Source: Patescibacteria group bacterium (GTDB lineage: Bacteria > Patescibacteriota > Patescibacteriia > Patescibacteriales > UBA12465). Taken from it: 64,000 bases of DNA. Position 1 is the first letter of the stretch. Every line of letters begins with the position of its first letter. Location of the stretch: assembly GCA_049318005.1 (NCBI GenBank), contig JBMOHE010000002.1:13824-77823 (forward strand), given 5' to 3'. This document shows positions 2,834-48,756 of the stretch, one piece after another. Made by a program: the position numbers and the translations under genes. The notes beneath the pieces were generated by a model. It made no database searches. It had not been told where the DNA came from and saw only the letters and a program-made list of their open reading frames with translations.

Positions 2834-3409
2834 CTACTTAGTAACTTGAAGATCAACTTTTGGTGCTTCAGCGGCTACTGGAGCAACTTGGAAATATGCT
2901 TTCTGAGAATAATTAAATATTGAAGCCATTAAACTCATAGGAAAACGCTTAACTAAGATATTATAGTTTCTAGCCTCTTCATTGAAGCGACTACGTTCAA
3001 CGCTTATTCTGTTTTCTGTTCCCTCTAGCTGAGCCATTAAAGTATTTACCGTATCAATAGATTTTAATTGAGGATAGTTTTCCATGATAACGAGTAATCG
3101 ACTTAAAGCGCCTTCAACCTGAGAAGCAGCTTCAGCTTTAGCATTGGTAGTATTAGCCCCACTATAATTTTGACGAGCAGCGGCTAAATCACCAAAAACT
3201 TTTTGTTCTTGACCCATAGCGCCTTTAACAGCTCCCACTAAGTTAGGGATTAAATCAAAACGTCTTTGGTACTGAACCTCAACTTGTGCCCATTGTTGAT
3301 CAACCTGCTCATTAACAGTAACGAGAGTATTGTAAGAACTCCAGAACCAGCCAATTAATAGAACAACAATGCCTAAAATAGCCAGTAAAATAATTGAATT
3401 TTTTTTCAT
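2834..3409 (-). CDS. LemA family protein
   Basis: N-terminal TM helix then YNTLV...QWAQVEVQYQRRFDLIPNLV and ENRISVERSRFNEEARNYN, classic LemA blocks. Confidence 0.9.
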   Translation of the reverse strand: MKKNSIILLAILGIVVLLIGWFWSSYNTLVTVNEQVDQQWAQVEVQYQRRFDLIPNLVGAVKGAMGQEQKVFGDLAAARQNYSGANTTNAKAEAASQVEGALSRLLVIMENYPQLKSIDTVNTLMAQLEGTENRISVERSRFNEEARNYNILVKRFPMSLMASIFNYSQKAYFQVAPVAAEAPKVDLQVTK

Positions 3410-3580
3410 AATTTCGTAGTCCGCGATACGCGGATATTATTATTTATTTAATATTTAAGATGCCTATATTTTAGCACATTTTTATGAAAAAATCAACAAA
3501 AGCTCAAAAATATTGGGATTTTTACGTGCGGCTGTAACGGTTCCCTCCTTTCAACGTATTATTATATGAGTATAAATAAT

Positions 3581-3706
3581 ATGAAAAGAATAAATTGGAA
3601 AAAATCTCAAGCTCAAGAATGTGCAGCTCACGGCTACATGTTTTTTACTATTAATTTAGTCGATCCAAGAGCCGGGATTTTTAATGATTTTTATTTTAAG
3701 ATATAA
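3581..3706 (+). CDS. Candidate leader peptide (41 aa; alternative in-frame ATG at 3566) upstream of the MFS gene
   Basis: ATG 3581 to TAA 3704-3706, read by hand; 3' part encodes segment 1 (GCCGGGATTTTT, 3671-3682) of an alternative-hairpin set; no clear SD. Confidence 0.3.
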   Translation: MKRINWKKSQAQECAAHGYMFFTINLVDPRAGIFNDFYFKI

Positions 3707-3732
3707 ACTATAACTATTAAATATAAACAATC

Positions 3733-3769
3733 AAAAAAATCCCGACTATAAATTAGCCGGGATTTTTTT
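3733..3769 (+). terminator. Intrinsic terminator / attenuator hairpin in the MFS leader
   Basis: AAAAAAATCCCG...CGGGATTTTTTT; stem ATCCCG/CGGGAT with a 7-T run, 27 nt upstream of ATG 3796, followed by SD AAAGGAG (3782-3788). Confidence 0.6.
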
Positions 3770-3795
3770 AAATTAAACTAGAAAGGAGTAAAAAC

Positions 3796-5007
3796 ATGAA
3801 AAATTTAAAAAAAACCGCCGTAAAATCGCTAGTAAACCGTTTCTTAATCTTGTCCTTTTTAATCGCCCTAGTTGGCTCAGTTTCCGCCGCAACCTATGTT
3901 CTATTCTTAAAAAGTAAGGGGCTAGATCTTCTACAAGTAAATATAATTAATGCCTTTTTCATGGCAACGATTATCTTAATGGAGATGCCAACCGGATCAT
4001 TCGCTGATAAATTCGGTCGTCATCGCTCAATCACAGTTAGCTTTTTCTTATTTACGATTGCTCTCGTTACTTATTATTTCGCTGATAGTTTCTGGCTCTT
4101 TATTCTATCTGAAGTAATTGCGGGTCTGGCTCTAACTTTTTCTTCTGGCGCGCTAGAAGCTTGGCTAGTTGATTCACTTAAATTTCACGGTCTTGTTCAT
4201 TTAAAATTTAAATTATTTAGAAAGGAAGCTTACTTTGTTTCGGCCGGATTAGTTATTGGTAGCTTATCAGGATCATATCTTGGTGACTATGACTTATCTT
4301 GGCCTTGGATTTTAGGCGCTATTAGTTCACTATTAGCAGGAATATATTCTTTATCAATTAAAGAAGACTATCACGAAGCAGGAACTAAACGAGTCAAAAC
4401 GGGGCTAATAAAGCAAATAAAAATTGCTAGTCAACATGGTTTCAATAATCGTCATATTGTTATATTTATGTTTCTGGGGGCGATATTTAATCTATCTATT
4501 CAGGCACTTAATATGCAATGGACACTAGTATTTCAAAATGTATACCAAGTTGAAACAAAGTATTTAGGTTGGATATTTGTGGCCACGGCAATAATTATTT
4601 CTCTAGGCAGCACTTTATCTAAATATAGTCTTAAATATATTAAAGATGAGAAGAAATCATTAGCCATCACTCAAATATTAACGGCTATATTTATTATCAT
4701 TCTAGCTTTATCTAGCAATTTAATTATGGCCCTAAGCTTCTTCTTTCTTCATGAACTAACACGTAGTTTCTTCGGTCCTATAAAGAAAAATTTTCTTAAT
4801 GATCACATTCAATCAGAAACCAGGGCGACGGTTCTTTCCCTTGATTCGATGATGGCAAAAGTTGGAAGTTTAATTGGGCTTATTTCAAGTGGCTGGATCG
4901 CTAATAACTATTCAATTAAAACTGCTTGGCTAGCTTCCGGAATATTTCTCTTGGTTGTGCTCCTAGTATTCTTAATAGCAAAACCAAAAAACAAAAACGG
5001 ACTTTAA
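3796..5007 (+). CDS. MFS transporter
   Basis: 403 aa, about 12 predicted TM helices, motif-A-like MPTGSFADKFGRHRS; strong SD upstream. Confidence 0.85.
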   Translation: MKNLKKTAVKSLVNRFLILSFLIALVGSVSAATYVLFLKSKGLDLLQVNIINAFFMATIILMEMPTGSFADKFGRHRSITVSFFLFTIALVTYYFADSFWLFILSEVIAGLALTFSSGALEAWLVDSLKFHGLVHLKFKLFRKEAYFVSAGLVIGSLSGSYLGDYDLSWPWILGAISSLLAGIYSLSIKEDYHEAGTKRVKTGLIKQIKIASQHGFNNRHIVIFMFLGAIFNLSIQALNMQWTLVFQNVYQVETKYLGWIFVATAIIISLGSTLSKYSLKYIKDEKKSLAITQILTAIFIIILALSSNLIMALSFFFLHELTRSFFGPIKKNFLNDHIQSETRATVLSLDSMMAKVGSLIGLISSGWIANNYSIKTAWLASGIFLLVVLLVFLIAKPKNKNGL

Positions 5008-5018
5008 AGTCCGTTTTT
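4995..5018. terminator. Bidirectional intrinsic terminator between convergent MFS and deacetylase genes
   Basis: AAAACGGACTTTAAAGTCCGTTTT: perfect palindrome flanked by A and T runs, overlapping the MFS stop codon. Confidence 0.7.
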
Positions 5019-10247: not shown

Positions 10248-10745
10248 ATGCAAACTCCCTATCGCCGCAAAGAAACCTATGTGAAGCCAAAACCGGATCC
10301 CTTTTTAACCGAGGCTAAGTTTTTAGAACTCAAAAATAAATTAGAACGCATGAAAGCTTCGCACCCCGCTCTTGCGACTGAAGTTAAGCGCTTAGCAGAA
10401 ATGGGCGACTTTTCTGAAAACGCCGGTTATCAAGATGCAAAACATAAACTACGAGGTTTGAACCAAAGAATTTTAGAACTCGAAGCTCATTTAAAAGTCG
10501 CCGAAATTTTTCATCCTAATAAAAATATTAATAAGGTTCAGTTAGGACACCATGTTACAATTGAAACTGGAGGCAAAGAAAAAACCTATACTATTTTAGG
10601 CGGGTCAGAAACTGATCCAACGGCCGGAATAATTTCTCATAGCTCACCAATTGGCGCCGCCATTTTAAATCATAGCGTTGGCGATATTATTAAGGTTATA
10701 ATTAATGATAAAGAAAAAATTTATAAAATATTAAAAATTTTTTAA
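10248..10745 (+). CDS. greA: Transcription elongation factor GreA
   Basis: Coiled-coil tip MGDFSENAGYQDAK (acidic D/E pair) and C-terminal GreA domain ISHSSPIGAAIL. Confidence 0.9.
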   Translation: MQTPYRRKETYVKPKPDPFLTEAKFLELKNKLERMKASHPALATEVKRLAEMGDFSENAGYQDAKHKLRGLNQRILELEAHLKVAEIFHPNKNINKVQLGHHVTIETGGKEKTYTILGGSETDPTAGIISHSSPIGAAILNHSVGDIIKVIINDKEKIYKILKIF

Positions 10746-25392: not shown

Positions 25393-25854
25393 ATGACTAA
25401 AGAAACGGAATTAATCCCTGTAACCAGAAAAACTTACGAAATTATGCTCAAAAAAGAAAATGAACTTAACGAGCTGATTGGCGATGGACAAAAAGAAAAA
25501 GCTCTGGAGAACGAAAACAGAAACGAGAATTTACAAGATTCAACCGCCGAGTTTCATGAAGACTTAAAAGTGTATCGATCTCGTCGTGAAGATCTAAAAA
25601 AAGATTTAGAAAAAATCGAAGTGATACAACCGGAACCACAAAACAAAATTGTAAAAATTGGTAACGCCGTTGTCTTACGAACAAAAACAAATGAAGTTGC
25701 GACCCGCATTCTTGATGGACTAAGTTACTCAAAAAATGTCTGTAGCTTAAAAAGCGCCCTCGGGAACCTTATTTACGGGAAAAAAGTTGGCGATATAGTA
25801 TCTTTAAATAACAAAGAATATACTATCCAGGAAATACTACTTCCTGAATTTTAA
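25393..25854 (+). CDS. GreA/GreB-family paralogue (Gfh-like?)
   Basis: Coiled-coil N-half, tip NLQDSTAEFHED only partly matches the GreA acidic tip; C-terminal IVKIGNAVVL...GKKVGDIVSL GreA-C-like. Confidence 0.5.
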   Translation: MTKETELIPVTRKTYEIMLKKENELNELIGDGQKEKALENENRNENLQDSTAEFHEDLKVYRSRREDLKKDLEKIEVIQPEPQNKIVKIGNAVVLRTKTNEVATRILDGLSYSKNVCSLKSALGNLIYGKKVGDIVSLNNKEYTIQEILLPEF

Positions 25855-42405: not shown

Positions 42406-45400
42406 TTATTTTAAATCACCCACATCTATTTTTCTAATATTTTCATTACTTATTCCAAGAGATAACTGTCTCATTATTTGATAAGCAGCCTCTCCGTTAG
42501 CGAGATAATATCTGTAACCATCAGTTGGGTTAATATACCAGGCTTCCCCGTTATTTTCTACTTGAAGAACTATTCTGCCTTTTAATCTATTAGTTAGAGC
42601 GGTTGAATAATTAGTATTCTTGATATAATCACTTGGTAAGACAGAAGTAGGAGCAACTGGTATTTTGTTTAAATCGGCATTAGTTATTCCTAACCCAAAC
42701 TTACGTAGAGCTTGATAGGCAGCTGGTCCATCAGCTAGATAATATCTTGATAAAGAGACCTTGTCTAAATACCAGGCTTGGCCTTTAGTTTCTACTTGGA
42801 GTAATATGCGGCCAGCTAGTTTAGTTGAAAGCTTCTTATCTATTATCTTAGATAGTAGTGATCTTTCATATTGATAGATGCTGGAAATATAATTATTAGC
42901 CTGACCATCTTTGGTTGGCTCATTGACTTCTGGGGTAGTAGGGGATCCGCAACTTCTTTCAGTGAGAGCTCTTTGCTCAGCTGTTAGTGAGCAGAAGTTT
43001 GGAGATTTAGCTAGAACGTTTCTAAATTGTTTACCGCCGATACAAGTGGTTTGCCAAGCGTCGTAAGTTACTTCAGAGCAGCTAGAGATAACTAGAGGAG
43101 AATATGAGCTGCCACTTGCAGGGCTAGCTACTGGATTATTACCAGTATAGACAACGTATTCGGAAAAGTGCTTAGTCCAGACAATCAAATCGCTGCCAAC
43201 ATTAATTTTACAATCGCCATTAGCTATTAAGGCGTCACCGTCTAACTGGGAATCACCGGAGCAAGTATTACTAATTGGCCTAAACTCTCCCATATTGTTA
43301 ATAAAGCCAACATTATTACCAGCCTGACCGAAGAATGTCACTCTAACTGCTTTATTTAGAGTTAAGGTGGCGTTAGGGTCGCCGATTTCGAAAATGGAGA
43401 TAATGTCACTAGTTTTAAGAGATATGGACCCCGCTGCTTTTTGCTGAGGCAAACTAAATACCTCCGACCAAGCTAAAGTATTAGCAGTCATAGTTGTTCC
43501 ACTAAATACTTCCAAGCGAATATCTGAGGAGATATTAGCAATTAATTTCTCAGCGAAAGTGACTGTTTTACTACCACTAACAGTTTCAACGACAGAAGAA
43601 AGGTCAAGAGATATTTTATTAACACTATCAACACTACTAATTGTTGTTTGGGCATGCTTCATGTCTGGTGAAAATGCGATAGCTTGTGAATTACTAGTAT
43701 TTATGTATATAGGCTGAACGTTTATTAAAGTAACTGATTTAGCAAAATAGTTAGAGACTAAACCGCTACTATCTTTTGACCAGGCGTAAAGATTGTTTCC
43801 AAACGATGAGGTATAAATATTATTTCCAGATACAGCAATCAGGTCAGAGCCTCTATTAGAAGCAGCGACCAAAGATCCACTAAGGGTAGAATTAAAACTA
43901 GTCCAATTAGCGCCACCATCTAGAGACTGGTAACCATTACTTCCAGACAAAGCTATAATGTGTTTATCATCCTCTCCTGAGATGATAAAGGAATTAATAG
44001 ATGTGTCTTGAATCTTAAACTCTGTCCAAGTATTACCATCGTCTTCTGAAAAATACTTACTATCAACTCCGTCATTATTAACCGTCGCTACTAATTTAGT
44101 TCCGTAAGATGAGTATTTCAAACCGCCGCTAATTAGTGTTCCCGATGGACGAGTCTTTTGCAAATAGTTAACACCACCATCTGTTGACACCCAGATAAAA
44201 TTACCAACTTCAGAATTACCAGCCGCAATTTTTTCACCATTTCTAGTCATTGTGATTGCTAGCCAGTCACTAACAGCCACTGATGAAGAAGCCCAGGTGG
44301 CTCCACTATCACTGGACATATAGATGTCGGTAGCGTTACCAGTAACAACAATCTTTGAGCCATCAGAAGATGAATCTATTACTCTGAAATTTCCAGTAGT
44401 AGCACTAGACCAAGTAGAGCCGCCATTAATAGATTTCGAAACACCGCTTGAACCAGCTAGATATAATTTTAGGCCATCAGCGGAGGCGCCAAGATCATAC
44501 CAAGTACCAGCCTCTGTGCTTACAGAACTCCATATTTGACCATAGTCAGAGGAAGTTGAGATGGTGCTGTTATTTATTAGAGCAAAAATCTTCTTACCAT
44601 CAGCTGCGCTAATTATTTTCTGAATAGCGTTAGAAGTAGTGGTTGATAAAGTCCAGGTAGCTGGATGACTTGGCTTTAGACTACTAAAGGCGTGGCTGGT
44701 TGGCGCCTGAGATCGCCAGCGAGAATTATTAGATAACGGCTTTTGATCTGTTTCGGTTAACAGATAGGCGGCAGCATTAGTTACTGGACTGAGGATTAGA
44801 GAAACAACTGAAGAGCTAGACACAAGAGGAATAGACAAAGAATCGGAATTGGAAGTAACTAAAATTTTCCATTGGCCATAAGCTGTTTCTTCGTTATTAG
44901 TAGCATAGGCACGGTAGTAATAGACAGTACCAGAAGTTAATCCCGACAAATCATATGAATAGTTACTATCAGAGAATGGACTACTTTCTGTAGTAGTGGC
45001 ATAGTTATTAATACTTGCCCCCCAGTTGAATCCTCTAACCGTTGGATCAAAAACATCTACATATTCAATGTTACCATTAATGGTTGCTGAGCTTGATTCT
45101 AGATTAGAAACTTCATCTGTTATTATCTTTTCAGATTTAAACTTGATTATGAAGATATCCATATTTCCATCTGAAACAAGATTAGAAACACCATATCCTG
45201 TGTCAAAATCGACGGTACCAGGAAAATAACCAGTGACATAGACGTTACTCAAAGAATCTACGGTAACTGATTCTCCATAATCATTACTAGTTGCACCAAT
45301 ACTTTTAGCCCAGGCGAATGCTCCATCAGCATTTAATTTAGAGATGAAGATATCTACATTGCCAGCTGAGACAAGATTATAAACACCAGACCCTGGGTCA

Positions 45401-48400
45401 AAATCAACAGTACTAGAAAAAGAACCAGTTGTATAGACATTGCCTGAGAAGTCTACAGTAATTGAATGCCCAGTATCATAACCAGTTCCACCCATCTTTT
45501 TTGCCCAAACAAAATTACCATTACTATCTAATTTTGAGATGAAAATATCATCACTAGCTGAAGTGAGATTATATACCTCCTCTCCTGGATCAAAATCACC
45601 GACGCCACGAAAATAACCAGTAGTATAAATATTACCTAAAGAGTCTACAGTGATTGAGTTTCCTCGATCATCACTAGTTCCGCCCATCTTTTTTGCCCAA
45701 ACAAAATTACCATTACTATCTAATTTTGAGATGAAAATATCATCACTAGCTGAAGTTAGATTATATACCTCCTCTCCTGGATCAAAATCACCCGTACCAG
45801 AAAAATAACCGGCGGTATAGACGTTACCCAAAGAATCTACAGTGATTGAATATCCATGATCATTACTAGTTGAACCAATCTTTTTTGCCCAAACAAAATC
45901 ACCATTATTATCTAACTTTGAAATAAAGATGTCAGCACTACCAGTTGAAACAAGATTGTAAGCGCCAACTCCGGGATCAAAATCAGCGATATAATCAAAA
46001 TAACCAGTGGTATAGATATTGCCCAAAGAATCTATAGTGATTGATTTTCCTGCCTGACCAGAAATTCCGCCAATTTGTTTAACCCAAATAAAATCACCAT
46101 TACTATCTAGTTTTGAAATAAAAATATCACTTTCACCAGATGAAACAAGATTATGTGTCCCCTCTCCTGGATCAAAATCAACGGTACCTCGGAAAGAACC
46201 AGTAGTATAAATATTACCAAAAGAATCTACAGTAATCGAATATCCATGATCATCACTAGTTGAACCCATCTTTTTTGCCCAGGCAAATGTTCCATCGGCG
46301 TTTAATTTAGAGATGAAAATATCTTCATTGCCAGCTGAGACAAGATTATACACGCCAGATCCTGGGTTAAAATCAACAGTATCAGAAAAACTACCAGTAA
46401 TATAAACATTATCCAAAGAATCTACAGTTATTAAGCGTCCATTATCACCACCATTTCCGCCAATCTTTTTTGCCCAAACAAAATTTTGTTCATAATTAGG
46501 GGACTTGGTTTTGAATACCGTCCAATCCCCATAAACAGTGTCTTCATTATTACTAGTAGCGTAAGCCCGATAATAATATATCGTATCAATTTCTAGATCA
46601 GTTAATTCATAAGAAAATGTTCCCGCTCCAAATGTACCATTCTCTGTAGTTGTGGCAAAAGTGCTAGTACTTATTCCCCAATTAAAACCCCTAGTCGTTA
46701 AGACAATTGAGCCTATTCCTAAAATATCACCCCTAAGAATGGCTGTATGTTCATCAATACTGTTTAAAATTAGCGCTTCTACGGAAAAGCTATTAAAAGA
46801 TTTCCACTCGCTATAACTGGTTCCCATATTATCAGTAGCATAGGCCCGGTAATAATATATAGTACCAGGAACAAGATTTGAGAGATTATAAGAATAAGTT
46901 CCTTCGCTGAAAGTGCCATTCTCTGTAGTTGTGGCAAAAGTGCTAGTACTTGTTCCCCAATTAAATCCTCTGACATTCGGATTACTTTCACCAATAGATA
47001 ATATATCGCCATTTAAGATAGCTGAATCTCTATTTAAGCCACCGACAATTGAGTTAAGTTCTAAAACTCTGTTAGTAGTAAACGAAGTCCACTCGCTATA
47101 ACTGGTTCCCATATTATCAGTAGCATAGGCCCGGTAATAATATATAGTACCAGGAACAAGATTTGAGAGATTATAAGAATAAGTTCCTTCGCTGAAAGTG
47201 CCATTCTCTGTAGTTGTGGCAAAAGTGCTAGTACTTGTTCCCCAATTAAATCCTCTGACATTCGGATTACTTTCACCAATAGATAATATGTCGCCATTTA
47301 AGATAGCTGATGATGTGCTAATATTATTAACAGTGGAAGAAACCATAGCTAAATCTATTTTCCGTATTTTTAAAATATAAGCATCAGATAGACCGGCTGA
47401 GACAAGATTGGAAACACCGACCCCTGGGTCAAAATCAACCGTGCCAGAAAAATAACCAGTGGTATAGAGGTTACCCAAAGAATCTACAGTGATTGAATAT
47501 CCATGATCATTATTATTTACACCAATATTCTTAGACCAAATAAAGTTACCACTGCTATCTAATTTAGAGATAAAGACATCGTTGCCGCCATTTGAAGTCA
47601 GATTATATACTCCACTTCCTGGATCAAAATCACCTGTACCAGAAAAATAACCAGTGGCATAGATATTACCCAAAGAATCTACAGTGACTGAGTTTCCTTG
47701 ATTGCTATTAGTTGAAACTATCTTTTTTGCCCAAACAAAAACGCCATTACTGTCTAACTTGAGAACAAAAGTGCCACCGTTCATCAGACTAGAAACACCA
47801 GTTCCTGGGTCAAAATCAACCGTGCCAGAAAAATAACCAGTGGTATAGACATTTCCCGAGGAGTCTAAAACAATTGAAGCCCCTCCATCTACTACAAAAG
47901 ATTTGCCAATTTTCTTATACCAAAGAGAATTCCCATTAATATCTAATTTGGAAATAAATATATCAGATCCATTCTCGCCAGTTATATAGGTATTTCCAGA
48001 TGGATCTACGGTGATTGATTTTCCTTGATTATAATGACCAGCGGTAGATCCGCCTATCTTTTTGGCCCAGGCAAAAGTACCATTAGCATATAGCTTAACG
48101 ATAAAATCAGAGGAGTCATTCGTCGAAGTTAGGTTAAAAACACCAGCTCCCGGATCAAAATCAACGGTGCCTTGAAAAAAGCCAGTGGCATAGATATTAC
48201 CCAAAGAATCTACAGTGACTGAGTTTCCTCGTCCTCCATAAATTCCGCCGCCCATATTCTTAGCCCAAGCGAATGTTCCATCGGTATTTAATTTTGAAAT
48301 GAAAATGGAATCGGCGCCACCAGAAACAAGATTAGAAACACCAGCTCCTGGGTCAAAATCAACGGTGCCATAAAATACACCAGTTGTATAGACATTACCC

Positions 48401-48756
48401 GAGGAATCTAAAACAATTGAATGCCCAGCATCATAACTAGTTCCGCCCATCTTTTTTGCCCAAACAAAATTACCATTACTATCTAATTTTGAAATAAATA
48501 TGTCATAATTACCAGCTGAAACAAGATTAGAAACACCAGCTCCTGGGTCAAAATCAACGGTGCCATAAAATACACCAGTTGTATAGACATTACCCAATGA
48601 GTCTAAAATGATTGAATATCCAATATCATCGCCAGTTCCACCAATCTTTTTAGCCCAATCAACAGCAACATCTTCCGCTAACGCTGGCCTAGAAGAGAAA
48701 AAAATTAGAGCGAAAACTAAAATAAAAAAGCATTTTTTGAAAGTTTTTAAATTCAT
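42406..48756 (-). CDS. Giant secreted surface protein (2116 aa): two SBBP-type beta-propeller repeat arrays, four FN3/Ig-like modules, Asp-box (BNR-like) region, Cys module, two C-terminal ~60-aa repeats
   Basis: Signal peptide ...SSRPALA/EDV; many repeats of the type G.S.D.G.SI.VDS.GN.Y.TG.F.GT.DFDPG....L.S.G..D.FISKL; SxDxGxTW-like boxes (SSDYGQIW, SDSGATW, EDDGNTW, LDGGANW). Confidence 0.85.
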   Translation of the reverse strand: MNLKTFKKCFFILVFALIFFSSRPALAEDVAVDWAKKIGGTGDDIGYSIILDSLGNVYTTGVFYGTVDFDPGAGVSNLVSAGNYDIFISKLDSNGNFVWAKKMGGTSYDAGHSIVLDSSGNVYTTGVFYGTVDFDPGAGVSNLVSGGADSIFISKLNTDGTFAWAKNMGGGIYGGRGNSVTVDSLGNIYATGFFQGTVDFDPGAGVFNLTSTNDSSDFIVKLYANGTFAWAKKIGGSTAGHYNQGKSITVDPSGNTYITGENGSDIFISKLDINGNSLWYKKIGKSFVVDGGASIVLDSSGNVYTTGYFSGTVDFDPGTGVSSLMNGGTFVLKLDSNGVFVWAKKIVSTNSNQGNSVTVDSLGNIYATGYFSGTGDFDPGSGVYNLTSNGGNDVFISKLDSSGNFIWSKNIGVNNNDHGYSITVDSLGNLYTTGYFSGTVDFDPGVGVSNLVSAGLSDAYILKIRKIDLAMVSSTVNNISTSSAILNGDILSIGESNPNVRGFNWGTSTSTFATTTENGTFSEGTYSYNLSNLVPGTIYYYRAYATDNMGTSYSEWTSFTTNRVLELNSIVGGLNRDSAILNGDILSIGESNPNVRGFNWGTSTSTFATTTENGTFSEGTYSYNLSNLVPGTIYYYRAYATDNMGTSYSEWKSFNSFSVEALILNSIDEHTAILRGDILGIGSIVLTTRGFNWGISTSTFATTTENGTFGAGTFSYELTDLEIDTIYYYRAYATSNNEDTVYGDWTVFKTKSPNYEQNFVWAKKIGGNGGDNGRLITVDSLDNVYITGSFSDTVDFNPGSGVYNLVSAGNEDIFISKLNADGTFAWAKKMGSTSDDHGYSITVDSFGNIYTTGSFRGTVDFDPGEGTHNLVSSGESDIFISKLDSNGDFIWVKQIGGISGQAGKSITIDSLGNIYTTGYFDYIADFDPGVGAYNLVSTGSADIFISKLDNNGDFVWAKKIGSTSNDHGYSITVDSLGNVYTAGYFSGTGDFDPGEEVYNLTSASDDIFISKLDSNGNFVWAKKMGGTSDDRGNSITVDSLGNIYTTGYFRGVGDFDPGEEVYNLTSASDDIFISKLDSNGNFVWAKKMGGTGYDTGHSITVDFSGNVYTTGSFSSTVDFDPGSGVYNLVSAGNVDIFISKLNADGAFAWAKSIGATSNDYGESVTVDSLSNVYVTGYFPGTVDFDTGYGVSNLVSDGNMDIFIIKFKSEKIITDEVSNLESSSATINGNIEYVDVFDPTVRGFNWGASINNYATTTESSPFSDSNYSYDLSGLTSGTVYYYRAYATNNEETAYGQWKILVTSNSDSLSIPLVSSSSVVSLILSPVTNAAAYLLTETDQKPLSNNSRWRSQAPTSHAFSSLKPSHPATWTLSTTTSNAIQKIISAADGKKIFALINNSTISTSSDYGQIWSSVSTEAGTWYDLGASADGLKLYLAGSSGVSKSINGGSTWSSATTGNFRVIDSSSDGSKIVVTGNATDIYMSSDSGATWASSSVAVSDWLAITMTRNGEKIAAGNSEVGNFIWVSTDGGVNYLQKTRPSGTLISGGLKYSSYGTKLVATVNNDGVDSKYFSEDDGNTWTEFKIQDTSINSFIISGEDDKHIIALSGSNGYQSLDGGANWTSFNSTLSGSLVAASNRGSDLIAVSGNNIYTSSFGNNLYAWSKDSSGLVSNYFAKSVTLINVQPIYINTSNSQAIAFSPDMKHAQTTISSVDSVNKISLDLSSVVETVSGSKTVTFAEKLIANISSDIRLEVFSGTTMTANTLAWSEVFSLPQQKAAGSISLKTSDIISIFEIGDPNATLTLNKAVRVTFFGQAGNNVGFINNMGEFRPISNTCSGDSQLDGDALIANGDCKINVGSDLIVWTKHFSEYVVYTGNNPVASPASGSSYSPLVISSCSEVTYDAWQTTCIGGKQFRNVLAKSPNFCSLTAEQRALTERSCGSPTTPEVNEPTKDGQANNYISSIYQYERSLLSKIIDKKLSTKLAGRILLQVETKGQAWYLDKVSLSRYYLADGPAAYQALRKFGLGITNADLNKIPVAPTSVLPSDYIKNTNYSTALTNRLKGRIVLQVENNGEAWYINPTDGYRYYLANGEAAYQIMRQLSLGISNENIRKIDVGDLK
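46804..47310 (-). repeat. Intragenic near-perfect tandem duplication, 285-bp period (two FN3-like modules)
   Basis: 46804-47025 and 47089-47310 are nearly identical (one mismatch noticed: ATATATCGCC vs ATATGTCGCC); a diverged third unit lies at about 46505-46790. Confidence 0.85.

Follow-up and report, generated by a model that had tools for sequence, protein, structure and literature searches.

In the 64-kb stretch of Patescibacteria DNA analysed here (the window; GC content ~34%), whose nearest relatives are Falkowbacteria and other Patescibacteria, a 386-nucleotide (nt) spacer at 3410-3795 separates two divergent genes. Its left neighbour is a LemA gene on the minus strand (2834-3409), and on the plus strand it leads into a gene for a 403-aa transporter of the major facilitator superfamily (MFS; 3796-5007; MFS_1 match, 2e-31) of the drug:H+ antiporter (DHA) type. 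We analysed the spacer as the leader of the MFS gene and as a candidate transcription attenuator. It contains two small open reading frames (ORFs) on the plus strand, one of 17 codons (mini-ORF 1, 3484-3537, MKKSTKAQKYWDFYVRL followed by a stop) and one of 41 codons plus stop (the leader ORF, 3581-3706, MKRINWKKSQAQECAAHGYMFFTINLVDPRAGIFNDFYFKI). The 13-nt sequence AGCCGGGATTTTT forms an exact direct repeat with copies at 3670-3682 and 3755-3767, and its complement sits between the two copies at 3733-3746. A third copy of GGGATTTTT lies at 3515-3523, or at 3515-3524 if a following A is counted. These features had been described in a sequence-only reading of this DNA, and all of them are present where it placed them. 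The intergenic region is identical in two further public assemblies (L051 and L052) and is therefore not an assembly artefact. A scan of the window for tRNA and tmRNA genes found none. Elsewhere the window has two GreA/GreB-like ORFs (10248-10745 and 25393-25854), of which one is complete and the other matches only weakly at its C-terminus, and an ORF of 2116 aa (42406-48756).

The repeats can give rise to two alternative hairpins that share their middle segment, as had been proposed from the sequence. The first is formed by an inverted repeat of 3733-3748 and 3754-3769 (94% complementary, loop of 5 nt), whose 5' and 3' arms are termed segment C (AAAAAAATCCCGACTA) and segment D (TAGCCGGGA). 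This putative terminator (3733-3769) folds with -16.6 kcal/mol (z = -7.7; 0 of 200 shuffles equally good), includes a run of seven T at 3763-3769 in segment D and ends 26-27 nt before the MFS start. The second hairpin, from an inverted repeat of 3670-3697 and 3720-3747, engages segment C with segment B (3670-3699, codons 30-40 of the leader ORF). In this putative antiterminator (3670-3747; -17.7 kcal/mol, z = -4.6) the core of B (3673-3682, CGGGAUUUUU) pairs with 3735-3744 in C, and the extension of B (3685-3699) pairs with 3717-3733. The core of B can also pair with segment A (3587-3608, codons 3-10), the 5' strand of a putative anti-antiterminator with the pairings 3600-3608/3674-3682 and 3587-3594/3690-3697. 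Segment A was identified from minimum free energy (MFE) folds, co-variation and a swap test. The whole stretch 3560-3800 folds with z = -3.1. The Shine-Dalgarno sequence of the MFS gene (GAAAGGAG, 3781-3788, plus strand, 7 nt 5' of the ATG) takes part in none of these alternative helices. A pattern scan called the 3733-3769 hairpin terminator-like on the minus strand; the seven-T run is on the plus strand. A role as the LemA terminator was ruled out because LemA is transcribed in the opposite direction, and a mobile REP/MITE-like repeat was ruled out because the motif is locus-specific and co-varying.

Folding of the window leader revealed a thermodynamic switch in silico. The MFE structure of the free leader consisted of A:B and the terminator (-35.0 kcal/mol), and with D withheld it was the B:C antiterminator (-31.1 kcal/mol). 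When a ribosome was represented by a 28-nt mask at codon 8 or 22, the antiterminator was the MFE structure even with D present, and with the mask at the stop codon the leader returned to A:B and the terminator. A ribosome mask on codons 3-16 moved the window from terminator to antiterminator. A partition-function scan gave a terminator probability of 0.95 without a ribosome, of ~0.1-0.4 with the P site at codons 3-16 and of at least 0.8 at most positions past codon 16.

Loci were then gathered via the MFS protein, which gave 46 (5 from species genomes and 41 from metagenomes), and L047 and L048 were added as the closest relatives (68% and 74% MFS identity). About 30 relatives with MFS identities of 31-74% were compared. 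Their leaders were sorted by eye into 13 lineages (groups A-M) with no recognisable mutual nucleotide similarity; group A comprises the window, L047, L048, L001, L002, L007-L012 and L014. In almost every locus, down to ~31% identity, the same order was found: a promoter-like motif, an ORF and a terminator. The ATG of the ORF follows the promoter-like motif by 10-25 nt, and the terminator-like hairpin with its T run, present in all relatives, lies 20-42 nt past the stop codon and, in most loci, 25-60 nt before the MFS ATG. The stop codon always falls between B and C, so a ribosome terminating there would separate the two segments. The MFS Shine-Dalgarno is kept in group A as AGAAAGGAG. Close relatives retain the LemA-leader-MFS synteny, and across the set the leader accompanies the MFS gene whatever sits upstream. 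Outside the clade, no comparable leader was found at the MFS homologues L049 (29% identity) and L050 (Clostridium), and the Gracilibacteria locus L005 (26%) had no TGTAAC-CGTA motif.

To follow the pairing across lineages, segment B was sought in each locus as the best upstream partner of the terminator 5' arm. This partner starts 79-110 nt into the ORF (about codons 27-37) in 27 of 31 loci, and the B:C duplexes mostly have -15 to -21 kcal/mol, with z mostly -3 to -5 relative to shuffles. The 5' arms of the terminators themselves are unrelated among lineages (for example ATCCCGAC, AATCCCTCGGC, ACGCCCTCGGT, AATCCCCGCCC, CCTATTCAGCC and AGGCGCTTGAAGC). In swap tests with RNAduplex, cognate B and C paired with a mean of -16.7 kcal/mol compared to -11.3 kcal/mol for non-cognate pairs, and none of 20000 permutations was as good; an ungapped 8-mer alignment of B, C and D is unsuited to the bulged B:C helices. 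The A:B swap test across lineages gave -16.8 kcal/mol for cognate and -11.4 kcal/mol for non-cognate pairs (0 of 20000 permutations). Across lineages, segment A is the first ~40 nt of the ORF and pairs with B and with the stretch after B. Within group A, 93% of the helix cells are paired compared to 43-50% when the strands are slid, and 12 pairs carry changes in both strands (0 of 500 shuffles). The group A A:B helix has 23 pairs and is 91% paired, with both partners changed in 4 pairs, apparently in the window's own sequence. The antiterminator of group B is 92.6% paired compared to 25-46% when slid; CG<->UA compensation links B and C, whose helix is 99% paired. Since A:B and B:C complementarity co-evolve with the terminator sequence, the segments form the classical 1:2, 2:3 and 3:4 arrangement. 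The mutually exclusive pairings noticed earlier correspond to 2:3 and 3:4 and stand; the 1:2 pairing through segment A at 3587-3608 had been overlooked. An equilibrium ribosome-mask scan gave a clear switch in group A and a few other lineages only, with five of the seven other scanned group A leaders (L047, L002, L008, L012 and L014) switching like the window. Apart from these helices, group B (L004, L018, L024-L026, L030 and L041) has an extra co-varying hairpin that ends exactly at the stop codon and whose loop is a Shine-Dalgarno-like (G)GAGGAAUC(C), as at 2867-2888 in L004. Group B also has an invariant AUGUUG between stop codon and terminator, with CAACAAC or ACAAC in the ORF as its pairing partner.

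The leader ORF is a constant part of this architecture. All ~30 relatives examined have an ORF of 39-57 codons in the corresponding position; mini-ORF 1 is not conserved. Dinucleotide shuffles of each leader yielded an ATG ORF of the real length in 0.1-2.7% of trials, which corresponds to a chance of 0.001-0.03 per locus, and retention in 13 independent lineages at such odds is not explained by chance. The window ORF from ATG 3581 aligns with the MNNKHWQKS... of relatives. Translation might instead begin at the in-frame ATG at 3566, which would give 46 codons; as a conserved start this ATG was rejected, its frame not being maintained in L009, L001 and L014. The NCBI and JGI pipelines already call such leader ORFs as genes for a 'hypothetical protein', and the exact window peptide is on record as 'hypothetical protein ACOYL8_01025' of a Patescibacteria group bacterium (P0109); its look-up returned identical copies only. 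Pfam gave no match for the window peptide, and its database relatives are without a Pfam domain and are named 'hypothetical protein' only. The C-terminal halves of the peptides vary in length and character: group A peptides have a hydrophobic tail that the window's version lacks, and group B tails are hydrophilic. Such variability and weak constraint would be typical of a leader peptide and not of a working protein. Over codons 2-25 in all lineages, Asn makes up 12.6% compared to 5.7% in the window's long ORFs (2.2x) and Gln 6.9% compared to 2.6% (2.6x); Cys is also enriched and Asp and Glu are depleted in these early codons, and position 2 is Asn in 17 of 29 peptides. The Asn and Gln enrichment may reflect A-rich RNA pairing with the U-rich stretch after B, or regulatory codons.

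Upstream of the leader ORF lies a promoter-like motif, with a -35-like box TGTAAC at 3533-3538 and a -10-like box CGTATTAT (CGTA overlapping TATTAT) at 3555-3562, both on the plus strand. The arrangement TGTAAC-N16-CGTA is found once in the window (0.01 expected). The motif is present in L001-L004 and L007-L044, 5' of each leader ORF, and often runs on as CGTATTATTA; the position of TGTAAC relative to the leader ORF is kept in most relatives. AAC, the 16-nt spacing and CGT(A/C) are invariant across lineages, whereas TATTAT is not. Promoters of extracytoplasmic function (ECF) sigma factors have AAC in the -35 element and CGT in the -10 element with a spacer of 14-17 bp, and CGTA is a -10 element of the sigma-W type (PMC5758882). 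The window motif shares AAC, CGT and an in-range spacer with the B. subtilis sigma-W/X/M/V promoters (Gaballa et al. 2018) and thus resembles the ECF-sigma promoter type, with the difference that ECF promoters have a T-rich stretch beside the -35 and the window motif has one beside the -10. From its position, we infer a transcription start at ~3565-3572, ~10 nt upstream of the leader ORF. A pattern scan found no sigma-70-like plus-strand promoter in the spacer, and no ECF sigma or sigma-70 r2/r4 protein was found among 20 window ORFs of 143-249 aa. In L047 (68% MFS identity), a GC-rich hairpin CCGCCCCGGGCGG (1210-1236) sits between the promoter-like motif and the leader start; it is present neither in the window nor in other group A loci.

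Mini-ORF 1 and the third GGGATTTTT, which the sequence-only reading had counted as parts of the element, do not belong to it: both sit 5' of the promoter-like motif and lack conservation among relatives. The stop codon (TAA) of mini-ORF 1 lies within the TGTAAC box, and given the inferred start at ~3565-3572, mini-ORF 1 and the third GGGATTTTT are probably outside the transcript. The region 3486-3524, upstream of the motif, resembles a shortened copy of segments A and B: GAAAAAATC at 3486-3494 is identical to 3598-3606, AAGCTCAAAAAT at 3500-3511 is a near-match to 3609-3620, and GGGATTTTTA at 3515-3524 is identical to 3674-3683. It may be what is left of a partial duplication. In L001, the reverse complement AAAATCCC lies at a comparable distance from TGTAAC.

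A further conserved feature, overlooked in an earlier feature list that was otherwise right about the hairpins, lies at codons 12-22 of the leader ORF. The hairpin P1 (3615-3645, plus strand; stem 3615-3623/3637-3645, inner stem 3625-3628/3632-3635) merges at its 3' strand into a U tract that includes UUU UUU at 3641-3646, Phe codons 21-22. An in-frame Phe codon is found at codons 20-27, usually 22: F22 is present in at least 90% of 29 aligned peptides, with F exactly at position 22 in 21 of 29. In every leader read by eye, this codon is TTT, even in GC-richer ones that use TTC elsewhere. In nearly all lineages a small hairpin ends just before the UUU codon or includes it. The stems of P1 differ among lineages, with four of five pairs changed on both sides within group A, and on average only 10% of other windows in the ORF are as stable as the 30-nt window ending at the UUU codon. 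A second aromatic codon often follows the UUU (FAF, FAY, FAW or FF). Common residues are Pro near positions 14-15 and Gly at 20, and an Asp near 29-30 is conserved. A hairpin followed by a U tract in a leader ORF is the form of the polymerase pause signals of trp and his leaders. By this analogy, the simplest reading of P1 and its U tract is a polymerase pause that would keep ribosome and polymerase in step. P1/UUU could also, or instead, be a programmed stall site; the UUU codon lies ~20-40 nt 5' of B in most lineages, so a ribosome held there would leave B exposed. A slippery frameshift site (U UUU UUA, 3640-3647) was ruled out because relatives do not keep it.

Collectively, these results suggest that the leader is a ribosome-dependent four-segment transcription attenuator of the MFS gene, a reading to which we assign a probability of roughly 75%. 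Transcription would start ~10 nt before the 41-codon leader ORF. In the OFF state, A (3587-3608) would pair with B (3673-3699), leaving C free for D (3754-3762), and the U tract at 3763-3769 would complete the terminator. In the ON state, B would pair with C and block the terminator. Because A pairs with B as an anti-antiterminator, the default state would be to terminate: without a ribosome, A:B would form once B is made. A ribosome translating smoothly to the stop codon (3704-3706) would come to stand between B and C, A:B would re-form behind it, and termination would again follow. A ribosome delayed within about the first 25 codons would instead cover A or occupy the A-B loop, so that B would be free when C emerges, B:C would form and the polymerase would read through into the MFS gene. 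The proposal made from the sequence, that ribosome position on the leader ORF selects the hairpin, is supported by the fixed codon position of B, by its co-variation with otherwise unrelated terminators and by the response of the mask scan at codons 3-16.

Several observations weigh against this proposal. The support is comparative and computational; if ribosomes lag far behind the polymerase, ordinary translation instead of stalling might turn the gene ON. No clear Shine-Dalgarno sequence precedes the leader ORF. Its peptide is weakly constrained, with dN/dS of 0.6-0.7 compared to 0.4-1.0 in shifted frames; among the three frames of group C, it is the real one that is under the least constraint. 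Since the dN/dS signal is weak, the case for the predicted translation rests on the maintained frame. By eye, the leader shows neither a stretch of identical codons nor a recognisable stalling motif. In the window, the outcome for codons 17-25 shifts with the amount of D included in the fold. For groups B and C, every ribosome position leaves the terminator favoured at equilibrium, so a switch there would have to be kinetic, with B:C forming before D is made unless B is sequestered; the position of the stop codon between B and C fits such control.

By sequence, the regulated gene encodes an efflux-type DHA transporter that falls outside the named resistance families. Its best NCBIfam match is Tet(40), with 82 bits against a cut-off of 800, followed by TetA(P) (58 bits, cut-off 750) and Mef(A) (23 bits, cut-off 675); further matches below cut-off are TIGR00900 ('H+ Antiporter protein'), Tet(A/B/C) and MdtH. 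The closest solved structure by sequence is NorA (E = 1.6e-4, PDB), and an exact look-up did not find the MFS protein on record. As to the signal, slowed elongation on the leader, for example by ribosome-targeting compounds that induce an efflux-type pump as in bmrB-bmrCD and mef/mel, is a tentative suggestion that we place somewhat below even odds. The sequence-only reading had likened the leader to the drug-inducible erm, cat and bmrCD systems. The attenuation part of that comparison stands, and drug induction remains an analogy, given a Tet(40) score so far under its cut-off.

The same attenuator could instead respond to a more specific signal. Charging of tRNA-Phe (or tRNA-Asn or tRNA-Gln) might be sensed at the UUU codon, as charged tRNA is in pheA and trp leaders, or the leader might be an arrest peptide that senses a small molecule, as TnaC and SpeFL do. 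The near-invariant in-frame UUU at codons 20-27, often with a second aromatic codon, the Pro near 14-15 and Gly at 20, and the 2.2x and 2.6x excess of Asn and Gln in the early codons are all consistent with this, as is the exposure of B expected from a ribosome at UUU, ~20-40 nt upstream. However, there are just one to three Phe codons and no run, the MFS protein resembles an exporter-type DHA member rather than an amino-acid importer, the U tract is also the 3' flank of P1 and so may be conserved at the RNA level, and the Asn and Gln enrichment may merely reflect A-rich pairing with the U-rich stretch after B. We consider a specific signal of either kind rather unlikely. Its most pointed form is speculative and, in our estimate, unlikely: the leader would belong to a new arrest-peptide family (M-N-N ... 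P ... G-x-F, Phe codon at position 22), a small molecule or antibiotic would stall the ribosome at a defined site and free B, and a dedicated exporter would thereby be switched on, with the unit under an ECF-sigma type stress promoter.

The polarity might also be reversed, with ordinary leader translation turning the MFS gene ON and lost initiation turning it OFF, so that the leader would report translational capacity; a ribosome anywhere in codons 3-25 as C emerges would then allow read-through. The terminator forms without a ribosome (P = 0.95), A:B buries the leader's own start region, and in a leader of ~190 nt a late or lagging ribosome would not have moved past the early codons by the time the terminator is synthesised. 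Yet the conserved hairpin-U tract at codons 12-22 is pause-like and favours tight coupling, the stop codon is consistently 20-42 nt before C, where a terminating ribosome would part B from C, and the studied precedents act by stalling. We therefore regard reversed polarity as quite unlikely.

It is also conceivable that the RNA switches independently of translation, with a ligand, protein or tRNA stabilising A:B/P1 or B:C in the manner of a riboswitch or a protein-mediated attenuator and the ORF being incidental. The RNA-level co-variation of P1, A:B and B:C and the weakly constrained peptide would fit such a switch, and the strict TTT (by eye) hints at a constraint on the RNA. In contrast, a 39-57-codon ATG ORF is found in every lineage despite GC contents of 25-45% (p = 0.001-0.03 each), and the ORF start, the UUU codon and segment B keep fixed codon positions. 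Besides the U tract, no aptamer-core-like motif common to the lineages was seen, and no Rfam family matched. A translation-independent switch is thus very unlikely. Very unlikely, too, is a functional small protein with its own, perhaps leaky, terminator and a separately expressed MFS gene without any sensing: although the ORF is called as a gene by the NCBI and JGI pipelines, F22 and the Asp near 29-30 are conserved and group A peptides have a hydrophobic tail, the C-terminal half is unconserved, the tail is missing from the window and replaced by hydrophilic ones in group B, dN/dS is near 0.7, the 26-nt gap between terminator and MFS start contains no promoter-like site, and the co-evolution of A:B and B:C with the terminator would be left unexplained.

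We compared the proposed attenuator with known systems. In bmrB-bmrCD of B. subtilis (Reilman et al. 2014), a 162-nt leader ORF must be translated, a terminator, an antiterminator and an anti-antiterminator are predicted, and ribosome-targeting antibiotics slow translation, which leads to the antiterminator and to read-through into a drug exporter (PMC4191407). With its long translated ORF and three alternative structures, bmrB-bmrCD is the closest working analogue, the likeness being at the level of architecture. The bmrB terminator is inside the coding region, whereas here it follows the stop codon at a distance of 20-42 nt, and bmrCD is an ABC transporter rather than an MFS protein. Here, A:B and the mid-ORF hairpin with its UUU codon are conserved features, and the element is known computationally. 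Like bmrB-bmrCD, ermK, mef/mel and tetM are experimentally proven precedents of the same principle (PMC5418344). Two of these transcription attenuators, mef(E)/mel and ermK, are induced by macrolides (Chancey et al. 2015; Kwak et al. 1991; review, PMC5418344). In both, a resistance gene is controlled by stalling on the leader peptide, which favours the antiterminator over the intrinsic terminator, as ribosome delay would here. Mef is itself an MFS efflux pump, but the window MFS is only distantly related to it (23 bits to the Mef(A) model, cut-off 675). The mef/mel and ermK leaders are far shorter and have defined macrolide stalling motifs, whereas the leader here has 39-57 codons and no stalling motif recognised by eye. 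The trp-type leaders of E. coli have the identical four-segment logic, with segment 1 in the leader ORF; termination as the default without translation and a possible pause hairpin are matched here as well. Unlike those leaders, the present one has no run of regulatory codons, precedes a drug-antiporter type transporter, falls outside all Rfam leader families, and has its stop codon well past segment 2, where theirs lies between segments 1 and 2. Relative to all these precedents, it differs in its ECF-like promoter, its Patescibacteria hosts and its long, positionally conserved leader.

The principle is familiar, and the Patescibacteria family matches no curated family or paper that could be searched. 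A permissive Rfam search of 3300-3900 gave Thr_leader as the best match (27.5 bits, gathering score 55), through the terminator part alone; the other sub-threshold matches were leader and sRNA models or their 3' ends, again in the terminator part only. At gathering thresholds, 11 related loci had no Rfam match. Literature searches for leader peptides, attenuation or antiterminators in Patescibacteria or the candidate phyla radiation (CPR) brought up no relevant report.

Two further inverted repeats were observed at the ends of the neighbouring genes. Between the convergent MFS and polysaccharide deacetylase genes, a symmetric hairpin AAAAACGGACTTTAAAGTCCGTTTTT flanked by A/T runs (4993-5018) looks like a bidirectional intrinsic terminator. 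As this similar terminator ends the MFS gene, the genome appears to use hairpin-T signals. On the other side of the spacer, a GC-rich inverted repeat GTCCGCGATACGCGGAT lies at 3419-3435, ~10 nt 5' of the divergent LemA start codon. Its position is kept in relatives with a different sequence (1078-1092 in L047, ~2592-2617 in L001 and ~2594-2618 in L002), and it could be a LemA 5'-UTR structure or an operator.

To our knowledge, regulatory RNA and gene control have been little studied in Patescibacteria, which are mostly uncultured and have reduced genomes. The presence of a complete, co-varying attenuator in many lineages suggests that these organisms rely on close transcription-translation coupling and on intrinsic termination. 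While the principle is textbook, a complete and widely conserved CPR example with an unexplained invariant codon is less ordinary. The 40-57-codon 'hypothetical proteins' merit annotation as leader peptides, and TGTAAC-N16-CGTA might serve to mark an ECF-like regulon in Patescibacteria genomes. The ~200-nt cassette is portable to a heterologous or cell-free system in which the transporter's inducer could be sought. If the signal is a ribosome-targeting compound or a metabolite, it would point to the function of a widespread, unannotated MFS family. Were the arrest-peptide reading true, the CPR would gain its first sensory nascent peptide and its first demonstrated device for coupling transcription to translation.

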